Virus genome (UHGV): UHGV-0373465 | Reading direction: 5' to 3' (one strand) | DNA from: a virus | Length of the DNA stretch: 33,338 nt | Shown here: positions 2,128 to 26,416 of the stretch, in pieces | Position numbering within the stretch: the stretch's first letter is position 1 | Layout of the letters: each line of letters opens with the position of its first letter | Notes under the pieces: generated by a model | What the model saw: only the letters and a program-made list of their open reading frames with translations | The model's database searches: none | What the model was told of the DNA's origin: nothing | Translations under genes and position numbers: made by a program

Positions 2128-2624
2128 CAGTGATGACGCTTAATCTCGTTGAAAAACAGCCAGCAGCTATGCGCCGGATAATTGGCAAGCATCTTGCCGT
2201 CCCTCGCTGGCAGGATACATGTGATTATTATAATCAGATGATGGAGCGCGAACGGCTAACGGTTTGCTTTCATGCACAGTTAAAACAGCGTCACGCAACG
2301 ATGCGTTTTGAAGAAATGAACGACGTCGAACGTGAACGACTGGTTTGTGCAATTGATGAATTGCGTGGCGCATTCTCAAAACGCCGTCAGGTTGGCGCAA
2401 GTGAGTATGCATATATTAGTTTTTTAACAGTCAGTCAGCGTCGCACTTTATTTATGCACGCACGACTGACTGAAAAAGAATTCAACCAGCCATACTGGCG
2501 AATTAATGAAGAATCATGTTACTGGCGTGATGCTTTATTCCGTGCATTACGTGAATTATTCAGTCTGTTTGAGTATGCACCGACAATTCTGACGTCGGTA
2601 AAACCAGAGCAATATCTGCATTAA
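2124..2624 (+). CDS. B: Replication protein B-like (helicase-loader-type)
   Basis: 166 aa, equal to recalled P2 gpB length; ATGA overlap with the upstream ORF; position between cox and A. Confidence 0.65.
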   Translation: MTVMTLNLVEKQPAAMRRIIGKHLAVPRWQDTCDYYNQMMERERLTVCFHAQLKQRHATMRFEEMNDVERERLVCAIDELRGAFSKRRQVGASEYAYISFLTVSQRRTLFMHARLTEKEFNQPYWRINEESCYWRDALFRALRELFSLFEYAPTILTSVKPEQYLH

Positions 2625-2687
2625 ATAATTAACCAGAGTTTTTAACGCACTTAATCGTGCGGGGCTTCTTTTTGCCTGGAGAAAGTC

Positions 2688-2912
2688 ATGCATACAGTTT
2701 CTGAAAATCAGTGCGGTAAATACGCATTACTGCTGCAACAGGCCAGAACCGAAGCACAGGCCGACGCTGCGACGCGCTTTTCTTCTCATCTTGACGCCAT
2801 GATTCGCCATATCACAAAGGCGGAGTTATCCCGCGTGGAGATAGTCGAGCTGCTCAGTCAGGAGTCGGAAAAATTTCACAATATCGGATTGTCTCGCGGG
2901 GAGGTGCTTTGA
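2688..2912 (+). CDS. Hypothetical early protein (P2 orf80 position)
   Basis: 74-aa ORF in the early operon, with a 4-nt overlap onto the next ORF suggesting translational coupling. Confidence 0.5.
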
Positions 2913-3214
2913 TGTCCTGTTCTCATTCAGTTGTATTACTGAATAACGCCTTAAAAATCGCCGTTATGAAAAATGGCGATTTGTCTCTTATTCAACTTTG
3001 TCTTGATAAAGAAAAACGCGACATAACTGAATCTGTTATCGCGATTTATCAGAATGAATTAAACCTCCTGTCTGATGTGGTCAATTTACTTGTTAAACGC
3101 GCTGTATTCCACAAGCAAATTTCCTCCGTGGATGAACTGACAAAATTAACGACAGAAATCGTCAGCTATTGCGCTGATGAATTTAAGAAACTGAACGACA
3201 AAAGGAACTGGTAA
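2909..3214 (+). CDS. Hypothetical early protein (P2 orf81 position)
   Basis: 101-aa ORF, overlaps both neighbours by 1-4 nt. Confidence 0.5.
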
Positions 3215-3438
3215 TGCCGGACAACGTAGATTTCATTCAGGAACAACAGGCTGAATTACTGGAGCGCCAGATTAACGCGGCAAGGGTAAAACATTGCGGT
3301 GTTTCTGCGCTGGTTTGCGAAGAGTGTGACGTGCCAATACCTGCTGCCCGTCGTGCGGCTTATCCGTCAGCCACGCGTTGTGTTTCCTGTCAGTCAGTCT
3401 TTGAAGCAAAAAACAAACATTACCGGAGAACGGCATGA
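3214..3438 (+). CDS. TraR/DksA-family C4 zinc-finger protein (P2 orf82 position)
   Basis: 74 aa with CxxC ... CxxC (CEECDVPIPAARRAAYPSATRCVSCQ), typical of phage TraR/DksA-like zinc-finger proteins. Confidence 0.65.
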   Translation: MPDNVDFIQEQQAELLERQINAARVKHCGVSALVCEECDVPIPAARRAAYPSATRCVSCQSVFEAKNKHYRRTA

Positions 3439-3710
3439 GTATTCGTATTGAAATTGGCGAACGTTATGTCGTTACCAGTGACAGCTTTCAGTTTATTCTC
3501 CACGAGAAAAAGAGAGCGGAAAGCGGTAAAAACGCCGGTCAGGAATGGCTGTCGGTGGTTGGTTATTACCCGAAATTAAGCCAGCTCGTTTCCGGCATGA
3601 TGCATCACGATATTCTGACCGGAAGCGCAAAGTCTTTTGCTGATTTAAACGCGCAGGTTGAGCAACTCAGCAAGCGTTGTTCAGAGGCTTTTGGCTCATA
3701 TGGCCGTTAA
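3435..3710 (+). CDS. Hypothetical early protein (P2 orf83 position)
   Basis: 91-aa ORF directly upstream of A and overlapping it. Confidence 0.5.
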   Translation: MSIRIEIGERYVVTSDSFQFILHEKKRAESGKNAGQEWLSVVGYYPKLSQLVSGMMHHDILTGSAKSFADLNAQVEQLSKRCSEAFGSYGR

Positions 3711-5985
3711 AGCCTCCGGGCGTTTTGTCCCTCCATCAGCATTTGCCGCAGGCACCGGTAAGGCGTTTACCGGTGCTTATGCATGGAACGCGCCACGCGA
3801 GGCTGTCGGGCGCGAAAGACCCCTTACACGTGACGAGATGCGTCAGGTGCAAGGTGTTTTATCCACGATTAACCGCCTGCCTTACTTTTTGCGCTCGCTG
3901 TTTACTTCACGCTATGACTACATCCGGCGCAATAAAAGCCCGGTGCACGGGTTTTATTTCCTCACATCCACTTTTCAGCGTCGTTTATGGCCGCGCATTG
4001 AGCGCGTGAATCAGCGCCATGAAATGAACACCGACGCGTCGTTGCTGTTTCTGGCAGAGCGTGACCATTATGCGCGTCTGCCGGGGATGAATGACAAGGA
4101 ACTGAAAAAGTTTGCCGCCCGTATCTCATCGCAGCTTTTCATGATGTATGAGGAACTCTGCGATGCATGGGTTGATGCACATGGCGAGAAAGAATCGCTG
4201 TTTACGGATGAGGCTCAGGCGCATCTGTATGGTCATGTTGCTGGCGCTGCACGAGCTTTCAATATTTCCCCTCTCTACTGGAAAAAATACCGTAAAGGAC
4301 AGATGACCACGAGGCAGGCATATTCTGCCATTGCCCGTCTGTTTAACGATGAGTGGTGGACTCATCAGCTTAAAGGTCAGCGTATGCGCTGGCATGAGGC
4401 GTTACTGATTGCTGTCGGGGAGGTGAATAAAGACCGTTCTCCTTATGCCAGTAAACATGCCATTCGTGATGTGCGTGCGCGCCGCCAGGCAAATCTGGAA
4501 TTTCTTAAATCGTGTGACCTTGAAAACAGGGAAACCGGCGAGCGCATCGACCTTATCAGTAAGGTGATGGGAAGTATTTCTAATCCTGAAATTCGCCGGA
4601 TGGAGCTGATGAACACCATTGCCGGTATTGAGCGTTACGCCGCTGCAGAGGGTGATGTGGGGATGTTTATCACGCTGACCGCGCCGTCAAAGTATCACCC
4701 GACACGTCAGGTCGGAAAAGGCGAAAGTAAAACCGTTCAGCTTAATCACGGCTGGAACGATGAGGCATTTAATCCAAAGGATGCGCAGCGTTATCTCTGC
4801 CGTATCTGGAGCCTGATGCGCACGGCATTCAAGGATAATGATTTACAGGCCTACGGTTTGCGTGTCGTCGAGCCACACCACGACGGAACGCCGCACTGGC
4901 ATATGATGCTTTTTTGTAATCCACGCCAGCGTAACCAGATTATCGAAATCATGCGTCGCTATGCGCTCAAAGAGGATGGTGACGAAAGAGGAGCCGCGCG
5001 AAACCGTTTTCAGGCAAAGCACCTTAACCGGGGCGGTGCTGCGGGATATATCGCGAAATACATTTCAAAAAATATCGACGGCTATGCACTGGATGGTCAG
5101 CTCGATAACGATACCGGTAAGCCGCTTAAAGATACTGCCGCGGCTGTTACCGCATGGGCGTCAACGTGGCGCATCCCGCAATTTAAAACGGTTGGACTGC
5201 CGACAATGGGGGCTTACCGTGAACTACGCAAATTGCCTCGCGGCGTCAGTATTGCTGATGAGTTTGACGAACGCGTCGAGGCTGCTCGCGCTGCCGCAGA
5301 CAGTGGTGATTTTGCGTTGTATATCAGCGCGCAGGGTGGGGCAAATGTCCCGCGCGATTGTCAGACTGTCAGGGTTGCCCGTAGCCCGTCGAGTGACGTT
5401 AACGAGTACGAGGAAGAAGTCGAGAGAGTGGTCGGTATTTACGCGCCGCATCTCGGCGCGCGTCATATTCATATCACCAGAACGACGGACTGGCGCATTG
5501 TGCCGAAAGTTCCGGTCGTTGAGCCTTTGACTTTAAAAAGCGGCATCGCCGCGCCTCGGAGTCCTGTCAATAACTGTGGAAAGCTCACCGGCAGTGATAC
5601 TTCGTTACCGGCTCCCACACCTTATGAACATGCCGCAGCCGTGCTTAATCTGGTTGATGACGGTGTTATCGAATGGAATGAGCCAGAGGTCGTGAGGGCG
5701 CTCAGAGGTGCATTAAAACACGAACTGAGAACACCAAATCGTCAGCAGAGAAACGGAAGCCCGTTAAAACCACATGAAATAGCGCCATCGGCCAGACTGA
5801 CCCGGTCGGAACGAACGCAAATTACCCGTATCCGCGTTGACCTTGCTCAGAACGGTATCAGGCCGCAGCGATGGGAGCTTGAGGCGCTGGCGCGTGGCGC
5901 GACCGTAAATTATGACGGGAAAAAATTCACGTATCCGGTCGCTGATGAGTGGCCGGGATTCTCAACAGTAATGGAGTGGACATAA
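3700..5985 (+). CDS. A: Rolling-circle replication initiator endonuclease gpA
   Basis: ORF 3658-5985; the internal ATG at 3700 gives 761 aa, the recalled P2 gpA length; contains a rolling-circle Rep-like motif (GAAGYIAKYISK). Confidence 0.85.
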   Translation: MAVKASGRFVPPSAFAAGTGKAFTGAYAWNAPREAVGRERPLTRDEMRQVQGVLSTINRLPYFLRSLFTSRYDYIRRNKSPVHGFYFLTSTFQRRLWPRIERVNQRHEMNTDASLLFLAERDHYARLPGMNDKELKKFAARISSQLFMMYEELCDAWVDAHGEKESLFTDEAQAHLYGHVAGAARAFNISPLYWKKYRKGQMTTRQAYSAIARLFNDEWWTHQLKGQRMRWHEALLIAVGEVNKDRSPYASKHAIRDVRARRQANLEFLKSCDLENRETGERIDLISKVMGSISNPEIRRMELMNTIAGIERYAAAEGDVGMFITLTAPSKYHPTRQVGKGESKTVQLNHGWNDEAFNPKDAQRYLCRIWSLMRTAFKDNDLQAYGLRVVEPHHDGTPHWHMMLFCNPRQRNQIIEIMRRYALKEDGDERGAARNRFQAKHLNRGGAAGYIAKYISKNIDGYALDGQLDNDTGKPLKDTAAAVTAWASTWRIPQFKTVGLPTMGAYRELRKLPRGVSIADEFDERVEAARAAADSGDFALYISAQGGANVPRDCQTVRVARSPSSDVNEYEEEVERVVGIYAPHLGARHIHITRTTDWRIVPKVPVVEPLTLKSGIAAPRSPVNNCGKLTGSDTSLPAPTPYEHAAAVLNLVDDGVIEWNEPEVVRALRGALKHELRTPNRQQRNGSPLKPHEIAPSARLTRSERTQITRIRVDLAQNGIRPQRWELEALARGATVNYDGKKFTYPVADEWPGFSTVMEWT

Positions 5986-6437
5986 TGGCAAAAATTCACG
6001 AGGTAAAGCTGCACGCAAAATATTTCGACCTTGTGCTGGAAGGAAAGAAACGTGCAGAGTTCCGGAAAAATGACCGTAATTATGAGCGCGGGGACACGTT
6101 GATTTTGTATGAATGGGTGCAGGGTGTGTATACGGGGCGAAATGTTGAAGCCCGGATAACAGATGTTACTGACCTGTCAGACTGGCTGGAAGATTATGTC
6201 TTGCTAAGTATTGAGCTGCTTAATACAGGCGCATATGAGATTGTGAACTGGAAAGAACTTAGTGAGCGTGGCCTGGTATTCAGAATTAATCATGAAATTA
6301 TGCATCAGCTCGGCCTTGCTGTTATGTATGAACCAGAGACGGGGATGTCTGGCGGGGCAATGGTTGCCACGGATGGAGCATGGAACTATTCAGATGAACA
6401 GATGGAGCGTGCACAGCAAAACGGGTGGCTTGGATAA
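5985..6437 (+). CDS. ASCH/DUF3850-like (PUA-fold) domain protein with C-terminal extension
   Basis: ATG at 5985 overlaps the A stop (TAATG) and has a GGAG Shine-Dalgarno; N-terminus KIHEVKLHAKYFDLVLEGKKRAEFRKNDRNYERGDTLIL resembles DUF3850/ASCH proteins; first gene of the accessory island. Confidence 0.55.
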   Translation: MAKIHEVKLHAKYFDLVLEGKKRAEFRKNDRNYERGDTLILYEWVQGVYTGRNVEARITDVTDLSDWLEDYVLLSIELLNTGAYEIVNWKELSERGLVFRINHEIMHQLGLAVMYEPETGMSGGAMVATDGAWNYSDEQMERAQQNGWLG

Positions 6438-6643
6438 TGCACAGAATACCAGGCGAGATACCGCACCATAAAACTAAAAATATCAAGCTGATGGCTATTG
6501 TTCAGCGTTTACAGCGGATTATGGTCAACGAAAATCTGACGCCCGATGAGCTGGTCGGGTGTGCCGAAATAGTCCGGGATAATTACGGGCGGTTTAACCA
6601 TATCGGTCAGTCCAGAGTTGCGCCACCACAACGCAGACGATAG
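6425..6643 (+). CDS. Hypothetical small protein (start uncertain)
   Basis: 72-aa ORF overlapping the 3' end of the ASCH-like gene; no recognisable motif; alternative ATGs at 6437 and 6491. Confidence 0.25.
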   Translation: MAWIMHRIPGEIPHHKTKNIKLMAIVQRLQRIMVNENLTPDELVGCAEIVRDNYGRFNHIGQSRVAPPQRRR

Positions 6644-6830
6644 AGAACGCCGCCAGTCGTGAAACTTGTTTTCAGGGCTGGCGGGGTTGAATAACGAGTG
6701 TCGCGAGGCGTTAGTTTGAGCTTACAATTAAACCTATTGAAAATTAATGAGAAGTCAATTTTATCTTTTTCTCGTTAAAGATGGCCACAACTACTAAAAC
6801 GTGAGAATATCAAGACTTGGCAAAATCTAG

Positions 6831-6885
6831 CTTTTCCCAACGGGGTGTTTCGCTATAATACGCGGTCGGTTTTTAGGAGGGGTCA
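6831..6885 (+). promoter_or_regulatory. Putative sigma70 promoter and RBS for the methyltransferase gene
   Basis: Perfect TATAAT at 6854-6859 in an AT-rich spacer (6650-6885); weak -35 near 6831-6837; AGGAGG at 6875-6880 ahead of ATG 6886. Confidence 0.4.
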
Positions 6886-7824
6886 ATGCCAACTGTAGTT
6901 TCACTTTTTTCTGGATGTGGTGGTTCTGATGCGGGAGTTTTGAACGCAGGTTTCAATGTGCTTATGGCAAATGATATTTTGCCTTACGCAAGGGACGTTT
7001 ACTTAGAAAACCATCCTGAAACTGACTACATTTTGGGCGATATCTCAGGGCTCCAGTCGTTCCCTTCTGCTGAGTTGCTCATCGGATGCTATCCTTGCCA
7101 AGGATTTAGTCAAGGTGGGGCAAGGAAGGCAGATAGAAAGATTAATACACTATATTTAGAGTTTGCCCGTGCTTTGAGTAAAATTAAGCCAAAAGCATTC
7201 ATTGTAGAGAATGTCTCTGGTATGGTAAGGCGTAACTTTGAGCATTTATTAAAGGATCAATTCAAAGTTTTCGAAGAAGCAGGTTATACAGTAAGCTCGC
7301 AAATTCTGAATGCGTCCCATTATGGGGTATCCCAAGATAGGAAGCGAATCTTTATCGTAGGAATACGAAAGGACTACGGTATTACATACAAATTTCCAAA
7401 ACCAACACATGGTGATGGTTTGACACCATATTCCACAATTCGTGATGCTATTGGGCATATGCCTGTTTGGCCTGTTGGCGAGTTTTATGACGCCGATTTT
7501 CATTGGTATTATCTATCGCGAAACCGTAGGCAAGATTGGGATCAGATATCTAAAACAATTGTTGCAAATCCTAGACATATGCCTCTACATCCAATAAGTC
7601 CAACATTAGAAAAATTGGGACCTGATAAGTGGCAATTTACTTCGGATGCACCAGCTCGTAGGTTTAGCTATCGAGAGGCTGCTATTTTACAAGGTTTTGG
7701 GGATTTAATTTTCCCAGAAACTGAACGGGCTTCTATTAATATGAAATATACTGTGGTAGGTAATGCAGTACCGCCTCCATTGTTTGAGGCGGTTGCTAGA
7801 AACCTTCCAGATTTATGGGATTAA
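6886..7824 (+). CDS. DNA (cytosine-5)-methyltransferase, compact (312 aa)
   Basis: C5-MTase motifs in canonical order: FSGCGG (motif I, AdoMet binding), GCYPCQGFSQGG (motif IV, catalytic PCQ), FIVENVSGM (motif VI, ENV), QDRKRIFIVG (motif VIII), VVGNAVPPPL (motif X). AT-rich codon usage unlike the phage backbone. Confidence 0.85.
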   Translation: MPTVVSLFSGCGGSDAGVLNAGFNVLMANDILPYARDVYLENHPETDYILGDISGLQSFPSAELLIGCYPCQGFSQGGARKADRKINTLYLEFARALSKIKPKAFIVENVSGMVRRNFEHLLKDQFKVFEEAGYTVSSQILNASHYGVSQDRKRIFIVGIRKDYGITYKFPKPTHGDGLTPYSTIRDAIGHMPVWPVGEFYDADFHWYYLSRNRRQDWDQISKTIVANPRHMPLHPISPTLEKLGPDKWQFTSDAPARRFSYREAAILQGFGDLIFPETERASINMKYTVVGNAVPPPLFEAVARNLPDLWD

Positions 7825-8858
7825 GCAGCGATCGCGCTGGAAGGATCAAGGATGATATCTAGATAGCTAATATTTTGACTGTGATCAATATTATCAGATG
7901 CTCTGGTTAAATTGATTAATCTTAGGCGATCAACAAAAATAGCATCGCCTAACTTATTTTTATGCGCCCACTCACCATCTATCCATCGTAGATCTTGAGG
8001 TAAGAAATAATAAGTTGCCCATCGGTGAGCTACGGGGAATTTACTGTAGAGCATCGCAGGTGAGGCCTCAAGCTGCTTCGCTTCCCACTCTTCTTGAGAA
8101 CAGCCACACTGAACAAAAGAAATAGGGATGGCATCTCGTTGATCTCCCATTGGATGCCAGGCAATTATGTCAAGGCCTCCGTCACCACTATTTCCTCGAC
8201 TGAAATCTCGTTCTTTGAAGTTCGCTGTGCAACGGATATCGGAAGCAATACTCTTAAATTTATTATATAGAGTTCCAGTGTAAGGGGCCGCTTGACCACC
8301 AGAAGCCCAGCATGCTTTTATTATGCTACCGCTAGGCATTAGGCTTTCAAAAATAGGTAAACTAATTAGTTCAAAACTGCGCGTTATCTCTCTTCTGCTC
8401 ATTATGTTGACATATTTTATGTTAGCACAGATTAGTAAAGCTAAATATAGTCTTTCTAAATGTTCCAGTGGCTTTTCTGATATATCACGTAACTCTACAG
8501 TATCGTTGTCTTCTGATAAAGTAAAAGGGTAACTATCCCCAAATAAATCAATGCGTTGTCGTATGAAGCCTATCGCATAGCTCCACTTTCTGTCAGTATA
8601 TGCTCGACTAACACTTCGTTTTGTTCTCTTGCGTACAGGCGTATCATTTTCATCATCAACATCATAAACGCCCTCTTCTTCTGCTTCATCTGTTTCAGCT
8701 AGTACTGCTTCGGGTTGAGCTTGCAGTGTGCTATATAGGTCTCCTCGACTGAATGACCTGTCGATATTAGTTAAGGCCAATATCTCAATATAATCAGCCC
8801 ATAAATAAGGCTCATTAGAAGGCATTGAATCAAGATTTGTAATCATAATCTCAATCAT
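7821..8858 (-). CDS. Hypothetical protein, distal gene of minus-strand operon; candidate effector/nuclease (unproven)
   Basis: ORF 7821-8930; start likely at ATG 8858 or 8846, just after a GGGAGG and 3-8 nt from the upstream gene's stop. Its stop codon overlaps the MTase stop by 2 nt (convergent). Acidic stretch AETDEAEEEGVYDVDDENDT; no confidently recognised domain. Confidence 0.6.
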   Translation of the reverse strand: MIEIMITNLDSMPSNEPYLWADYIEILALTNIDRSFSRGDLYSTLQAQPEAVLAETDEAEEEGVYDVDDENDTPVRKRTKRSVSRAYTDRKWSYAIGFIRQRIDLFGDSYPFTLSEDNDTVELRDISEKPLEHLERLYLALLICANIKYVNIMSRREITRSFELISLPIFESLMPSGSIIKACWASGGQAAPYTGTLYNKFKSIASDIRCTANFKERDFSRGNSGDGGLDIIAWHPMGDQRDAIPISFVQCGCSQEEWEAKQLEASPAMLYSKFPVAHRWATYYFLPQDLRWIDGEWAHKNKLGDAIFVDRLRLINLTRASDNIDHSQNISYLDIILDPSSAIAA

Positions 8859-9924
8859 CCTCCCTTTTGCTTCTGATCTGATTTCTAATATTTTTTGACA
8901 TCTCAAAAATTTCAGATGCAGCCTCTTCATGCTCTAATGTTAATTCTTTAGCTTTAAGTAGCATATCCCAAACTACTCTTAATTTAACACTAGCTGCGTT
9001 TAGTGCTTTATCTAATGCTTCTCTTTCTCCGCTGGTATATAGATATGCTTCATCCAAGTTTGAACTTTTCATGAGAATTTCAATTGCTTCGGGTTTCTCA
9101 ACCACTGCTGCAATATCTTTTATTCTTCGAGACTCACCGATGATGGTTCTACCTTGTTGGTCAGGCACAAAAAACCAAGAGAATAAACGCTTAAGGTTTT
9201 CTTCATTTAAATTTGGGTCTAAAAAATCCTTTTTATCCTGTAGACCTAACCAGTTTGTGATTTTTGAATATCCCAAAGCTGTGGTTATATATGAAAATTC
9301 CACGTCAGAAGCCTTCATGGGTAAATTAAAAAACTCATGGTCATGCGCGACTTCATATAAGTTCAGTGCAGTGAGAAGTGTTGCAACATAATGTGGTTTA
9401 CTCCCAATCTCACGAGCCAGATTTTTTAATACTATCTCTTTAGGCTCATGTGAATAAAAAGTATCACATAACTCTTTAAGGTATTTGGCTTTAGATAATG
9501 AGTCCCATTCTTTGACCCCAGTTATATGACGATAACCGATATATCTCAGTACATCCTCTCGGTTTTCATAAATGATGCAGGGAAGCTTCTTAGGTTTATT
9601 GGTAGTATCATCAATGATTTCTTGCACACCTTTAAGTTTTCTTTTTGGAGGAAGCAGATCTCCATTGAGCAACTTTACAGCAGCTAAGCGTCTGTTTCCC
9701 TCAACCACGATGTAGTTTCCATTGCTTTTTACTGCCAATAAAGGTTCTCCAGGAAAGTAACCTTGCTGACCGATTGATAGCATTAGATCGTGGACACTTT
9801 CGTCATCTAACATTTCCTCAATGACTGTTGCAGCGTTACTGGCATCATTGAGACGAAAGAAACGTGGGTTTTTAGGGTCAAAATCAAGCTTATTTGTCTC
9901 AATTTCTACGATTTTGTTATCCAT
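8851..9924 (-). CDS. ParB/Srx-like N-terminal domain protein (DUF262/DndB-like superfamily candidate)
   Basis: ORF 8851-10056; start preferred at ATG 9924 (GAGG Shine-Dalgarno 5 nt upstream; alternatives 9981 and 10056). N-terminal region has the ParB-type signature YIVVEGNRRLAAVKLL about 75 residues in; the C-terminal two-thirds are helical and unassigned. Confidence 0.6.
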   Translation of the reverse strand: MDNKIVEIETNKLDFDPKNPRFFRLNDASNAATVIEEMLDDESVHDLMLSIGQQGYFPGEPLLAVKSNGNYIVVEGNRRLAAVKLLNGDLLPPKRKLKGVQEIIDDTTNKPKKLPCIIYENREDVLRYIGYRHITGVKEWDSLSKAKYLKELCDTFYSHEPKEIVLKNLAREIGSKPHYVATLLTALNLYEVAHDHEFFNLPMKASDVEFSYITTALGYSKITNWLGLQDKKDFLDPNLNEENLKRLFSWFFVPDQQGRTIIGESRRIKDIAAVVEKPEAIEILMKSSNLDEAYLYTSGEREALDKALNAASVKLRVVWDMLLKAKELTLEHEEAASEIFEMSKNIRNQIRSKREDD

Positions 9925-10151
9925 CTTAACCTCATGGGATGATGTAAATATCTTTTGGGGGATGCTTGATAAAACATCCATATTTGATCGTTTGCAGCGC
10001 ATTTGATACATCGAAGTGTACAAAAATGCTGGGCATAACTCTGCATTAAAATGCATTCACATTCAAAGAACTATTTTCTCGTTGGACATTTAGCCTAAGA
10101 GAGTTTGGACGGCTTTTGGAATTGCATCAAAACCGACCCATGAAGCGGGCG

Positions 10152-10339: not shown

Positions 10340-11374
10340 TCAGCCGTTGTCAGTGTCCAGTGAGTAGTTTTTAAATCGGATGACCTCCTGACCGAGCCAG
10401 CCGTTTATCTCGCGGATCCTGTCCTGTAACGGGATAAGCTCATTGCGGACAAAGACCTTTGCTACTTTCTCAATATCACCCAGCGACCCGACGTTCTCCG
10501 GCTTGCCGCCCATCAACTGAAAGGGGATGCGGTGCGCGTCCAGCAGGTCAGCGGCGCTGGCTTTTTTGATATTAAAAAAATCGTCCTTCGTTGCCACTTC
10601 ACTGAGCGGGATAATTTTAATGCCGTCAGCTTTCCCCTGCGGGGCATAGAGAAACAGGTTTTTAAAGTTGTTGCGGCCTTTCGACTTCACCATGTTTTCG
10701 CGAAGCATTTCGATATCGTTGCGATCCTGCACGGCATCAGTGACGTACATGATATATCCGGCATGAGCGCCGTTTTCGTAATACTTGCGGCGGAACAGCG
10801 TGGCCGACTCATTCAGCCAGGCAGAGTTAAGGGCGCTGAGATATTCCGGCAGACCGTACAGCTCCTGATTAATATCCGGCTCCAGCAGGTGAAACACGGA
10901 GCCGGGCGCGAAAGGTGTCGGCTCGTTGAAGGACGGCACCCACCAGTAAACATCCTCCTCCACGCCACGGCGGGTATATTTTGCCGGTGAGGTTTCCAGT
11001 CTGATGACCTTACCGGTGGTGCTGTAACGCTTTTCCAGAAACGCATTACCGAATACCAGAAAATCCAGCACAAAGCGGCTGAAATCCTGCTGAGAAAGCC
11101 ACGGGTGTGGGATAAACGTTGAGGCCAGAATGTTACGTTTGACGTAAATCGGTGAGCTGTGATGCACGGCAGCACGCAGGCTTTTTGCCAGACCGGTAAA
11201 GCTGACCGGTGGCTCATACCATCTGCCGTTACTGATGCACTCGACGTAATCCAGAATGTCACGGCGGTCGAGTACCGGCACCGGCTCACCAAAGGTGAAT
11301 GCCTCCATTTTCGGGGCGCTGGCGGTCATTTTTTTTGCCGCAGGTTGCGGTGTTTTCCCTTTTTTCTTGCTCAT
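10340..11374 (-). CDS. Q: Portal protein gpQ
   Basis: 344 aa, identical to recalled P2 gpQ length; adjacent to and co-oriented with the terminase large subunit. Confidence 0.85.
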   Translation of the reverse strand: MSKKKGKTPQPAAKKMTASAPKMEAFTFGEPVPVLDRRDILDYVECISNGRWYEPPVSFTGLAKSLRAAVHHSSPIYVKRNILASTFIPHPWLSQQDFSRFVLDFLVFGNAFLEKRYSTTGKVIRLETSPAKYTRRGVEEDVYWWVPSFNEPTPFAPGSVFHLLEPDINQELYGLPEYLSALNSAWLNESATLFRRKYYENGAHAGYIMYVTDAVQDRNDIEMLRENMVKSKGRNNFKNLFLYAPQGKADGIKIIPLSEVATKDDFFNIKKASAADLLDAHRIPFQLMGGKPENVGSLGDIEKVAKVFVRNELIPLQDRIREINGWLGQEVIRFKNYSLDTDNG

Positions 11375-19477: not shown

Positions 19478-20263
19478 TTATGAGTGATTTTTATTTGATG
19501 CTTTGTATTCTAAAACCTTCTTATTGGCGTAAAAGAATTTTGTATATGACAGGAATATAACCAGACCTGAAGTGAAATAGACGAGGGATAGTATTAATAA
19601 TGCTTTTTTGTGACTGTTATTATCTTTAATCTCCTGGCTTAACCATTCGGAGTCCTCCTCGTTTAGCTGTAAGAGCTTATTGCAGGCGATCTCAGGAAGT
19701 GTGTCTTTTATAAATACGTTTTGCAGTCTCTTGCAATCGGCAAGGCTATAAGTTTTATTAAATTCAACTGCTTTATTTTTGAAGGATAAAAGAACTTTGT
19801 CACTATAAACATAGTACATCATGTTTTTATATGGTATGCCTATGGCATCCCTTACTATAACGGATTGTTCGTTGTGTATATAACATGCGAAGAGAATATA
19901 AATAATGCTGGACAGAATTACAATTATTGTTTTAATTATGTGTGGTGGTTTTGTTATGTCACCCCAGAAGCGAGTAAGAAAAAAATACGATGTTTTTAGT
20001 TTTCCATCAATCAGCCCCTGCTGTATCATTCTCACATCTTCGATGCCTGATACATTGATTCCGTTAATTATTTTAAATAGTTGAATGTCGCGCCATTTTT
20101 TGTCGAGCATTTTTAACTTTCTGTCTGAATACTCAAAATTGAAATAATGTGCAATAAACCTCATAAGATTACTTTTACCAAAGGTAATAAATGTTAATGC
20201 TATTAATAAAAATAGATACAAAGAGATAAACCACCACGCATTAGTCACATTATCACTGAACAT
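19478..20263 (-). CDS. Hypothetical three-TM membrane protein (moron at the P2 orf30 position)
   Basis: 261 aa, very AT-rich, antisense to the flanking late genes; predicted transmembrane helices at the N-terminus (WWFISLYLFLLIALTFITF), middle (IIKTIIVILSSIIYILFACYI) and C-terminus (ALLILSLVYFTSGLVIFL). Confidence 0.65.
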   Translation of the reverse strand: MFSDNVTNAWWFISLYLFLLIALTFITFGKSNLMRFIAHYFNFEYSDRKLKMLDKKWRDIQLFKIINGINVSGIEDVRMIQQGLIDGKLKTSYFFLTRFWGDITKPPHIIKTIIVILSSIIYILFACYIHNEQSVIVRDAIGIPYKNMMYYVYSDKVLLSFKNKAVEFNKTYSLADCKRLQNVFIKDTLPEIACNKLLQLNEEDSEWLSQEIKDNNSHKKALLILSLVYFTSGLVIFLSYTKFFYANKKVLEYKASNKNHS

Positions 20264-20346
20264 TACGCTCTCCTCGAATGTTGTATGGTCGTTCTACAAA
20301 TGAATCCAGATAGCATAACTTTTATATATTGTGCAATCTCACACGC

Positions 20347-20982
20347 ATGAACACTCTCGCAAATATTCAGGAACTCGCGCGCGCACTGCGCAACATGATT
20401 CGTACCGGCCTTGTCGTCGAAACCAACCTTAAAGCCGGTCGCTGCCGTGTGCAGACCGGTGGCATGTGCACTGACTGGCTTCAGTGGCTGACCCATCGTG
20501 CCGGACGTTCGCGCACATGGTGGGCACCTTCCGTGGGGGAACAGGTGCTGATTCTGGCTGTGGGCGGTGAACTCGACACGGCGTTCGTTCTGCCGGGGAT
20601 TTATTCCGGCGATAACCCCGCGCCGTCTGCGTCGGCGGATGCCCTGCATATCCGTTTCCCTGACGGGGCGGTGATTGAGTATGAACCCGAAACCAGTGCA
20701 CTCACGGCAAGCGGAATTAAAACGGCCAGCGTGACGGCTTCTGATTCTGTTACTGCCACGGTGCCGGTGGTCATGGTGAAAGCATCAACCCGCGTCACCC
20801 TGGACACCCCGGAGGTGGTCTGCACCAACAGGCTGATTACCGGCACGCTGGAAGTGCAGAAGGGCGGGACGATGCGCGGCAACATTGAACACACCGGCGG
20901 TGAACTCTCATCAAACGGTAAGGTACTGCATACCCATAAACACCCCGGCGACAGCGGCGGCACAACCGGGAGCCCTCTATGA
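20347..20982 (+). CDS. V: Baseplate spike/assembly protein gpV
   Basis: ORF 20329-20982; ATG 20347 gives 211 aa, equal to recalled P2 gpV. Confidence 0.8.
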   Translation: MNTLANIQELARALRNMIRTGLVVETNLKAGRCRVQTGGMCTDWLQWLTHRAGRSRTWWAPSVGEQVLILAVGGELDTAFVLPGIYSGDNPAPSASADALHIRFPDGAVIEYEPETSALTASGIKTASVTASDSVTATVPVVMVKASTRVTLDTPEVVCTNRLITGTLEVQKGGTMRGNIEHTGGELSSNGKVLHTHKHPGDSGGTTGSPL

Positions 20983-25516: not shown

Positions 25517-26416
25517 ATGAGTGGTATTCGTATAACTCAGGCTATTGATAACAATCAGATTTTAGTAAATGTAAATACTTTTAATTATAGTGTTAATCCC
25601 TATCCACTCAAATGTCCTGACCCAAATTGCTCTGCTCATTTGGTGTATGTCAAAAGCCATATTCGTCGGAGTTTTAATAAAACCTTGCATATCCCCGCCT
25701 TCTTTAGACTGGAAAAAAATTTCACGCATGACAAATTATGCCAGTATGGAACTTCAGGATTGAATACAATTTATGCAAGTGATTCCAGTCATGATATCAG
25801 CCGTGCGCTTGCCACAGGTAATAATATATTCCGTATACATATACTCGATGAAGATGATATCTCTAAATTAAGCAGAAAAGCTGCAGCTATGCAGGCAAAT
25901 CCACCTTCTGATACTACAGACCGCGTTTATGTCAAGAGAGGTCGGAAAGCCCCTTATGTGAAGAACATGGATAGCTTACGGGAGATCTATGAATATGGAA
26001 AAGCTCACCCCAACAAGAGAAACAGCATAAAAATTGTTACTGGAACAAGTACTGTAACGTGGTCTGATTTTTTCTATGAAACAACGCAGTTAGAACGATT
26101 GTCAACTTACCTCCAGAAAGTAAAAATAGCTCAGGTTGCTGTAATTATGAAAGTGCATGTGGCGAGAATCCCTATGGCGAAATTTAATTATCGACACTTC
26201 ATTGAAGGTTCGCCAATGAGGATAAAAGGGGGCTTTAATATATATCCTACGATTCAATTAGGAAATGTTACTCCAAAATTATTTCCGTTGAGTAGCATTG
26301 TCATGGTACTCGGTAAATTTACTATTCCAACAAATAGAAAAATGATAATGGATCCAATATTTGAGCGTGAAGTCAGAACCATAGTTTCTAGTGAAGAGCA
26401 AGTGCTAATTCTTTGA
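25517..26416 (+). CDS. Hypothetical protein at the P2 Z/fun slot (possible Z/fun-like superinfection-exclusion gene)
   Basis: 299 aa, strongly AT-rich, own RBS (GGAGGAG before ATG 25517), flanked by about 215 bp and 320 bp non-coding spacers between G and FI; no recognisable catalytic motif. Confidence 0.6.
   Translation: MSGIRITQAIDNNQILVNVNTFNYSVNPYPLKCPDPNCSAHLVYVKSHIRRSFNKTLHIPAFFRLEKNFTHDKLCQYGTSGLNTIYASDSSHDISRALATGNNIFRIHILDEDDISKLSRKAAAMQANPPSDTTDRVYVKRGRKAPYVKNMDSLREIYEYGKAHPNKRNSIKIVTGTSTVTWSDFFYETTQLERLSTYLQKVKIAQVAVIMKVHVARIPMAKFNYRHFIEGSPMRIKGGFNIYPTIQLGNVTPKLFPLSSIVMVLGKFTIPTNRKMIMDPIFEREVRTIVSSEEQVLIL

Follow-up and report, generated by a model that had tools for sequence, protein, structure and literature searches.

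What is a cytosine methyltransferase gene doing where it runs, stop codon into stop codon, against an operon for a ParB-like protein and a protein of no annotated family? The question is raised by a three-gene cassette (6886-9924) in UHGV virus genome UHGV-0373465, a stretch of viral DNA of 33,338 nucleotides (nt) called the window here. A complete P2-like (Peduovirus) prophage of the Wphi type makes up the window; over 6600-10151 it shares 99.9-100% identity with the right end of coliphage Wphi (NC_005056), whose record names the three cassette genes mth, gp96 and gp98. We predict, with a probability of roughly 60%, that the cassette is a three-component restriction-modification-like anti-phage defence, in which mth would mark self DNA and the gp98-gp96 operon would act on DNA that lacks the mark.

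Three genes that are inherited together

The first-pass annotation had described a plus-strand C5-methyltransferase of 312 amino acids (aa) with its full ordered motif set, converging on two minus-strand genes of which the upstream one bears a ParB/Srx-type N-terminal motif. This outline holds. The methyltransferase motifs are present and the protein matches Pfam DNA_methylase (1e-61), the four letters TTAA are common to the two convergent stop codons, and VVEGNRRLAAVKLL is present in gp98. Both minus-strand open reading frames (ORFs) exist as well; the start of the downstream one, placed earlier at 8858, more probably lies at 8846, which leaves a gap of 4 nt after the TGA of gp98 (8851-8853). 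The cassette is AT-rich as described, with a GC content of 0.37-0.43 over 6500-10000 against 0.53-0.58 in the flanks (Table 1).

The trio is strictly co-inherited. A gp96 pattern was scanned over one genome per GTDB species and the neighbours were scored by a hidden Markov model scan, yielding 24 loci. All 24 carry gp98 immediately upstream of gp96 together with a C5 methylase of the same family, which lies about 3 kb further off in four of them and in Ramlibacter. Every lookup of a distant gp96 homologue returned the three genes in company, from Enterobacter P2-like prophages through Oryzomicrobium, Methylotenera and Ramlibacter to several metagenomic Beta- and Gammaproteobacteria, and co-occurrence was found in every locus examined. 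Remote members, at profile E values of about 1e-44 to 1e-50, retain the ParB, gp96 and C5-methylase genes in other gene orders and often add Vsr, which is adjacent in about 7 distinct loci. The trio is also carried by a Pseudomonas Peduoviridae phage, at a different genome position, and by non-phage chromosomal islands, beside other defence genes. Because the homologue E values range from 1e-100 to 1e-230, the observation is not a matter of chance. Within E. coli, 226 of 5426 complete genomes (about 4%) have a member of the methylase family, and these members form four nucleotide-identity classes; one representative per class was inspected, and each (4/4) has the trio in the P2 hotspot, once as an inverted cassette.

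Some loci have features of their own. In a Comamonadaceae-type subgroup (L003 and L044-L047), gp96 and the C5 methylase, which is more divergent here (49% identity in Ramlibacter), stand about 3 kb apart. The Ramlibacter locus (L003, 6915-11589) has Vsr directly after gp96, and the gene that intervenes before the methylase encodes a Type IIG restriction-modification enzyme of ~1044 aa; in L044 and L045 Vsr is found beyond the methylase instead. These arrangements suggest composite islands. In Yersinia phage HQ103, an intact 314-aa C5 methylase of the mth family (2335-3279), unannotated in the GenBank/RefSeq record, adjoins ParB-like and gp96-like genes annotated 'hypothetical'.

A HaeIII-like cytosine methyltransferase

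The mth product contains, in order, FSGCGG, PCQ, ENV, QDRKR and GNAV, which correspond to motifs I, IV, VI, VIII and X and complete the catalytic set; it also matches TIGR00675 dcm (2e-54). It aligns over its full length with M.HaeIII (1dct, E=1.6e-48), the target-recognition region included, and within this variable region the SRNR and PR/GR arginines of the two proteins line up. In 1DCT these arginines contact the GGCC bases, and GGCC as the target of mth is a lead and not a result. Orthologues in distant loci are 67-84% identical to mth, and the same 4-nt overlap of convergent stop codons is present in betaproteobacterial loci.

Direct reading places putative expression signals ahead of mth (Table 1). 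A consensus promoter scan called no full promoter at 6854..6880, which makes these signals a lead only, and matches in a sigma-70 scan were no more frequent than in shuffled sequence. As regards short palindromes, GATC is the most depleted 4-bp palindrome in the window, with 30 occurrences observed and ~129 expected under a Markov model (ratio 0.23). The next most depleted is GGCC, at 0.65 of expected, a value that was not compared with the E. coli background and is not used as evidence.

gp96, a putative nuclease

No Pfam, NCBIfam or PADLOC model matches gp96, which belongs to phrog_3984, a family of unannotated function. A profile search of 1.8 billion representative proteins recovered 1,499 clusters (50% identity) at E<=1e-3, of which 437 reach E<=1e-30. 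Each of the best 150 relatives stands alone, at a length of about 300-370 aa, and no ParB-gp96 fusion is found among them. The most likely start, in preference to 8858, is the ATG at 8846, because homologues begin at that methionine and GGGAGG directly abuts the ATG at 8858. Residue numbers below follow the 345-aa form that starts at 8858, which was used for the alignments and the model.

Structure prediction for a possible nuclease fold gave an AlphaFold2 model of high confidence (pLDDT 90.3, pTM 0.90), in which a winged helix is joined to a restriction-endonuclease-like fold. A Foldseek search of this model against the PDB returned nothing significant. Residues D226, D230, Q250, G252 and K261 are invariant in the family, and the invariant segment GDGGxD...QCGCS...W..K.LEA aligns with GDGGVD...QAK of MspJI, a segment that holds the catalytic D334, Q355 and K357 of that enzyme. 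MspJI and AspBHI, both modification-dependent, are among the nearest structural and motif neighbours of the catalytic domain of gp96. From the predicted fold and these motifs, the assignment of gp96 as a nuclease is moderately supported. The winged-helix region contains an acidic insertion of low confidence (AETDEAEEEGVYDVDDENDT..., residues ~55-85, window 8595-8690), which enterobacterial Wphi-type proteins share with a few further lineages and which most homologues lack.

gp98, a ParB/KorB-like protein

The start of gp98 at the ATG 9924 is backed by the N termini of homologues and by a GAGG ribosome-binding site; the longest ORF reaches 10056. The protein has a ParB/Srx N-terminal fold that carries the box II arginine motif, and its AlphaFold2 model, built from a 40-sequence alignment, has a pLDDT of 87.6. 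Conservation within the family is highest in box I (FDPxNPRF), in box II (EGNRRLAA) and in a box III-like GYRHITG..W, after which comes a segment resembling the ParB helix-turn-helix (HTH). Box II lines up with GERRxRA of ParB structures. The C-terminal third is helical, with no clear relative. The fold is best known from DNA segregation, and according to a 2025 survey the ParB-CTPase fold is able to bind CTP, ATP or GTP.

With the CTP-gated clamps ParB, KorB and Noc, gp98 thus has in common the N-terminal ParB/Srx fold, the arginines of boxes I and II and the HTH-like region. It differs from them in its divergent box III, in its C-terminal domain, in being encoded with a nuclease-like gene and a methylase, and in its lack of a ParA partner, as no ParA-type gene was found in any inspected cassette neighbourhood. 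A search for operator or parS-like sites upstream of gp98 and of mth gave just a weak palindrome and a terminator-like hairpin.

Exchange and decay of the gp98-gp96 operon

The three genes evolve at different rates. In most lineages identity to the window copies is 67-98% for mth, 29-61% for gp98 and 27-59% for gp96, which makes mth the slowest-evolving; Ramlibacter, at 49, 51 and 53%, respectively, is the exception. The difference is largest between the window and phage vB_EcoM-12474III (3237-6273), whose mth is 98% identical while gp98 and gp96 share 34% and 27% identity with their counterparts in global alignment (32% and 25% by BLAST). Nucleotide similarity between the two breaks exactly at the methylase stop codon and returns near cos. 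A methylase that stays fixed while its partners diverge, with the break at its stop codon, indicates that the restriction-type operon was swapped as a cassette. By the same reasoning, a 98% identical methylase beside deeply diverged partners points to one methylase specificity served by interchangeable restriction-type operons.

Disrupted copies were found in four loci, and the methylase is intact in all of them. IS5 lies within gp96 in E. coli JXZ9A32M and FXCREC123, with the same truncated gp96 product in both, and the two insertions may be a single event. In E. coli E2, IS2 lies between the gp98 start and cos, and in a Dechloromonas metagenome-assembled genome gp96 is frameshifted. Decay of this asymmetric kind is expected of restriction-modification systems whose restriction arm is toxic when methylation is missing; the asymmetry seen here rests on a small number of events. 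In the three E. coli loci the adjacent portal gene is annotated as truncated, which indicates a prophage remnant there. Yersinia phage L-413C, the classic Yersinia pestis typing phage, has a truncated ParB-like ORF (207-1199) overlapping orf91 and neither methylase nor gp96 in its hotspot, apparently a decayed cassette.

Relation to known systems

Of validated systems, PD-lambda-5 is the nearest to the cassette, which is a sibling of it with a C5 methylase and a restriction-endonuclease-like effector substituted. PD-lambda-5 is a validated broad-range defence, recorded as 'ParB/HEPN, methyltransferase'; it was cloned in a strain deleted for the mrr region and was read by its authors as a compacted prophage system of restriction-modification plus abortive infection (Vassallo et al. 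2022, PMC9519451). Like it, the window cassette is borne by a prophage and links a methylase to an N-terminal ParB domain of the same clade, and the motifs DPxNPR, VVEGNRR and RH are common to the ParB domains of both. The architectures differ. PD-lambda-5 consists of two co-directional genes, with a HEPN effector fused to ParB and a D12-class N6-adenine methylase, whereas the window encodes a separate winged-helix and restriction-endonuclease-like protein and a C5 methylase, in a convergent layout.

Profile comparisons locate the shared part. Only residues 1-150 of gp98 match PD-Lambda-5_A, over profile positions 1-158 of 440 (PADLOC, 3e-24), whereas a true member, gp27 of Marinobacter phage AS1, where a PD-lambda-5-type pair was located, matches over positions 4-381 of 473; alignment of the gp98 family with the AS1 A protein by hhalign covers the N-terminal 144 columns only (probability 98.5). 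The AS1 methylase matches PD-Lambda-5_B (4e-103) and Pfam MethyltransfD12, and so belongs to the D12-class N6-adenine enzymes. In a Vibrio phage, the ParB and HEPN halves of PD-Lambda-5_A are separate, and a Dam-type methylase comes after them. The occurrence of PD-Lambda-5_A in both fused and split form suggests joint action of the ParB domain and an effector. No PD-lambda-5 model matches gp96, and PD-Lambda-5_B is absent from the best 25 of 63 PADLOC matches of mth. Full membership of PD-lambda-5 is ruled out, since the ParB N-terminal domain alone is common to both and the methylase class is different.

Neither minus-strand protein matches a characterised non-defence family. The PADLOC matches of gp98 are PD-Lambda-5_A and PDC-M38A only; in the latter, residues 85-371 of the 401-aa ORF form cover profile positions 58-342 of 715, gp96 has no match, and no literature was found on the PADLOC candidate PDC-M38. 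The best PADLOC model for mth is DruM2 (1e-110), and Druantia type II is ruled out because the cassette contains no DruE, DruF or DruG. A Type IV enzyme of the MspJI/AspBHI type is likewise ruled out for gp96, whose N terminus is a winged helix rather than SRA-like and whose catalytic lysine is replaced by an invariant glycine.

The CglI and NgoAVII systems (M + R + N) combine a C5 methylase and a nuclease with a separate subunit that hydrolyses nucleotide, tracks along DNA and is required for cleavage; there the R subunit is a nuclease of the PLD family that bears a B3-like domain, and N is a helicase-like ATPase. The logic is alike, the folds here being PD-(D/E)xK-like and ParB, and the comparison is an analogy only.

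The locus had been proposed as an undescribed module. That much stands in so far as the trio is neither named nor tested in any paper that literature searches turned up. The exact window proteins (WP_001143634, WP_000570053 and WP_000368931) are, however, listed without a name among the P2-hotspot arrangements of Rousset 2022 (Table S5A), whose main text reports no test of the trio, and the related PD-lambda-5, whose clade includes the ParB domain of gp98, is validated. We therefore read the cassette as an uncharacterised variant of ParB-associated restriction-modification-like defence, catalogued before and unnamed. A ParB sensor, an effector and a methylase form the common theme, of which the window cassette is a distinct realisation.

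Proposed mechanism and its alternatives

In the mechanism that we propose, mth would methylate the DNA of host and prophage at a short site, probably GGCC, and the convergent gp98-gp96 operon would form the restriction arm. gp98 would serve as a nucleotide-gated DNA sensor or clamp: it would engage incoming DNA that is unmethylated and would recruit gp96, or license it, for cutting, and methylation would block the cutting of self DNA. The comparative evidence and the hotspot location support the earlier suggestion of a module for self/non-self discrimination carried as prophage cargo. Tentatively, gp98 might further be a nucleotide-gated sliding clamp of the ParB type, which would load where target sites are unmethylated, move by diffusion on foreign DNA and license gp96 as the nuclease.

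Several points weigh against a three-component defence of this kind. gp98 stays under the cutoffs of Pfam ParB_N (15.0 bits vs 26.3, E=0.026) and TIGR00180 (29.9 bits vs 58.45, 4e-7), and in the family alignment its box III departs from the canonical ParB hydrolysis motif. In the gp96 family an invariant glycine occupies the position of the canonical (D/E/Q)xK catalytic lysine, with the invariant K261 eleven residues past it. The GGCC specificity leans on similarity to M.HaeIII and on the base-contacting arginines of that enzyme. Finally, the linkage of the three genes is equally compatible with gp98 as a transcriptional controller.

The main alternative, itself unlikely, is a conventional Type II system in which gp96 alone would be a sequence-specific endonuclease matched to the methylase and gp98 a KorB-like expression controller, comparable to a C protein and outside cleavage. 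gp98 does stand first in the operon, the usual place of a controller, and convergent methylase and endonuclease genes with overlapping stops are typical of Type II systems, which are known cargo of P2 and P4 hotspots. Classical systems of the HaeIII/BsuRI/NgoPII type, and EcoT38I of the P2 hotspot, resemble the cassette in their compact C5 methylase with an M.HaeIII-like target-recognition region, and further likenesses are the convergent restriction-endonuclease-like gene, the Vsr accessory genes of some loci and the residence in a mobile hotspot. They differ from it in the third gene, since the 357-aa ParB-fold protein is encoded in 24/24 GTDB loci and in every further complete cassette that was inspected and is missing from no locus, and in gp96, which has neither the canonical catalytic lysine nor a detectable sequence family. 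gp98 is 357 aa long and better conserved than gp96, and a simple repressor would have no need of its invariant nucleotide-pocket boxes; no palindromic operator stood out upstream of gp98, and the same ParB clade is fused to an effector domain in PD-lambda-5.

It is improbable that the two arms are functionally separate, with mth serving in anti-restriction or as an epigenetic enzyme and gp98-gp96 acting independently of methylation in abortive infection or exclusion, or as a Type IV-like modification-dependent nuclease. Such a division would fit the kinship of the gp96 catalytic domain with MspJI and AspBHI, the frequency of orphan methylases in phages and the pairing of one methylase with very different versions of gp98 and gp96. 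It is at odds with a three-way linkage that is perfect across deep divergence and several gene orders, and with disruptions that strike gp96 or the operon promoter and never the methylase. gp96 moreover has a winged helix at its N terminus and no SRA-like domain for reading 5-methylcytosine (5mC), and a 5mC-targeting nuclease beside a 5mC methylase would attack the DNA of its own cell.

Least probable is a prophage-maintenance or post-segregational-killing (addiction) module, with the ParB-like protein in partition or cos-proximal silencing: about a quarter of P2 hotspots carry plasmid-partition genes, the ParB fold has its best-known role in segregation and restriction-modification systems do act as addiction modules, but no ParA partner was found in the neighbourhoods inspected, chromosomal islands carry it beside other defence genes, and for restriction-modification systems addiction and defence are not mutually exclusive.

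Prophage setting and cassette boundaries

The cassette occupies the cos-proximal A-Q ('tin/old') hotspot, which extends from gene A to gene Q (Table 1). In P2-like phages this hotspot is a reservoir of anti-phage systems according to two studies, one of them that of Vassallo et al. 2022 (PMC9519451). On the left the boundary is a hairpin, at which the conserved P2 early operon gives way to the AT-rich cassette; GC content falls from there, and nucleotide similarity to the 12474III-type cassette begins at window ~6660. On the other side, similarity to other P2-like phages picks up again at ~10120.

Table 1. Features of the cassette and its flanks, in window coordinates.
Feature	Position	Strand	Description
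Replication gene A	3658-5985		Left flank
DUF3850 orf91-like gene	5949-6437		Left flank
Hairpin	6646..6688	+	19-nt arms, 84% complementary; directly 3' of the P2 orf92-like gene stop
Putative mth expression signals	6854..6880	+	Perfect TATAAT 6854-6859, AGGAGG 6875-6880; direct reading
mth	6886..7824	+	C5 cytosine DNA methyltransferase, Wphi 'mth', WP_001143634, 312 aa; HaeIII-like
TTAA	7821..7824		Overlap of the convergent stops of mth and gp96
gp96	7821..8846	-	341 aa; predicted N-terminal winged helix and C-terminal PD-(D/E)xK-like domain; alternative starts 8858, 8930
gp98	8851..9924	-	ParB/KorB-like, 357 aa; ParB/Srx N-domain, HTH-like region, helical C-terminal domain
AT-rich region	9925..10151	-	Upstream of the gp98-gp96 operon; reaches the cos end; right cassette boundary
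cos end of linear phage genome	~10151		End of the Wphi record; right flank
Portal gene Q	10340-11374	-	Right flank

The orf91-like protein, a conserved backbone gene product adjoining the hotspot, consists of DUF3850/ASCH and DUF7415. The 2025 survey reports that phage ParB-CTPase folds are often fused to methylases and to DUF3850; a functional link of the backbone DUF3850 gene to gp98 is unproven.

The window has two further AT-rich islands. The second (19478-20649, minus strand, GC about 0.37) sits between tail-completion and baseplate genes, in what we take to be the position of P2 orf30, and holds co-oriented ORFs of 261 and 128 aa. The longer belongs to phrog_2407, its sole Pfam match being DUF6535 below cutoff (E=0.002); neither has a PADLOC match, and they could be further accessory or defence cargo. 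The third island (25517-26416, plus strand, GC about 0.37-0.43) sits between tail-fibre assembly and sheath genes and encodes a 299-aa protein of phrog_7195 with no Pfam or PADLOC match. It matches the Z/fun position, the second P2 defence hotspot (Vassallo et al., PMC9519451).

Implications

If the proposed function is correct, it would account for cargo carried by about 4% of complete E. coli genomes and would assign a function to the large unannotated gp96 family, which numbers about 1,500 clusters at 50% identity and is absent from Pfam. The DNA of lysogens would bear 5mC methylation of the HaeIII-like kind, which can be expected to clash with hosts positive for McrBC and to have consequences for cloning and for phage host range. 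Were gp98 to prove a sliding clamp, the cassette would represent a new mechanistic class of nucleotide-dependent restriction-modification, in which a ParB-CTPase fold replaces the helicase or AAA+ tracking subunit and effectors, restriction-endonuclease-like here and HEPN in PD-lambda-5, swap around a common ParB sensor. On the three-component reading alone, if it is confirmed, the ParB-CTPase fold, familiar from chromosome segregation, KorB and Noc, would gain a role in discriminating self from non-self DNA, coupled to a restriction nuclease.

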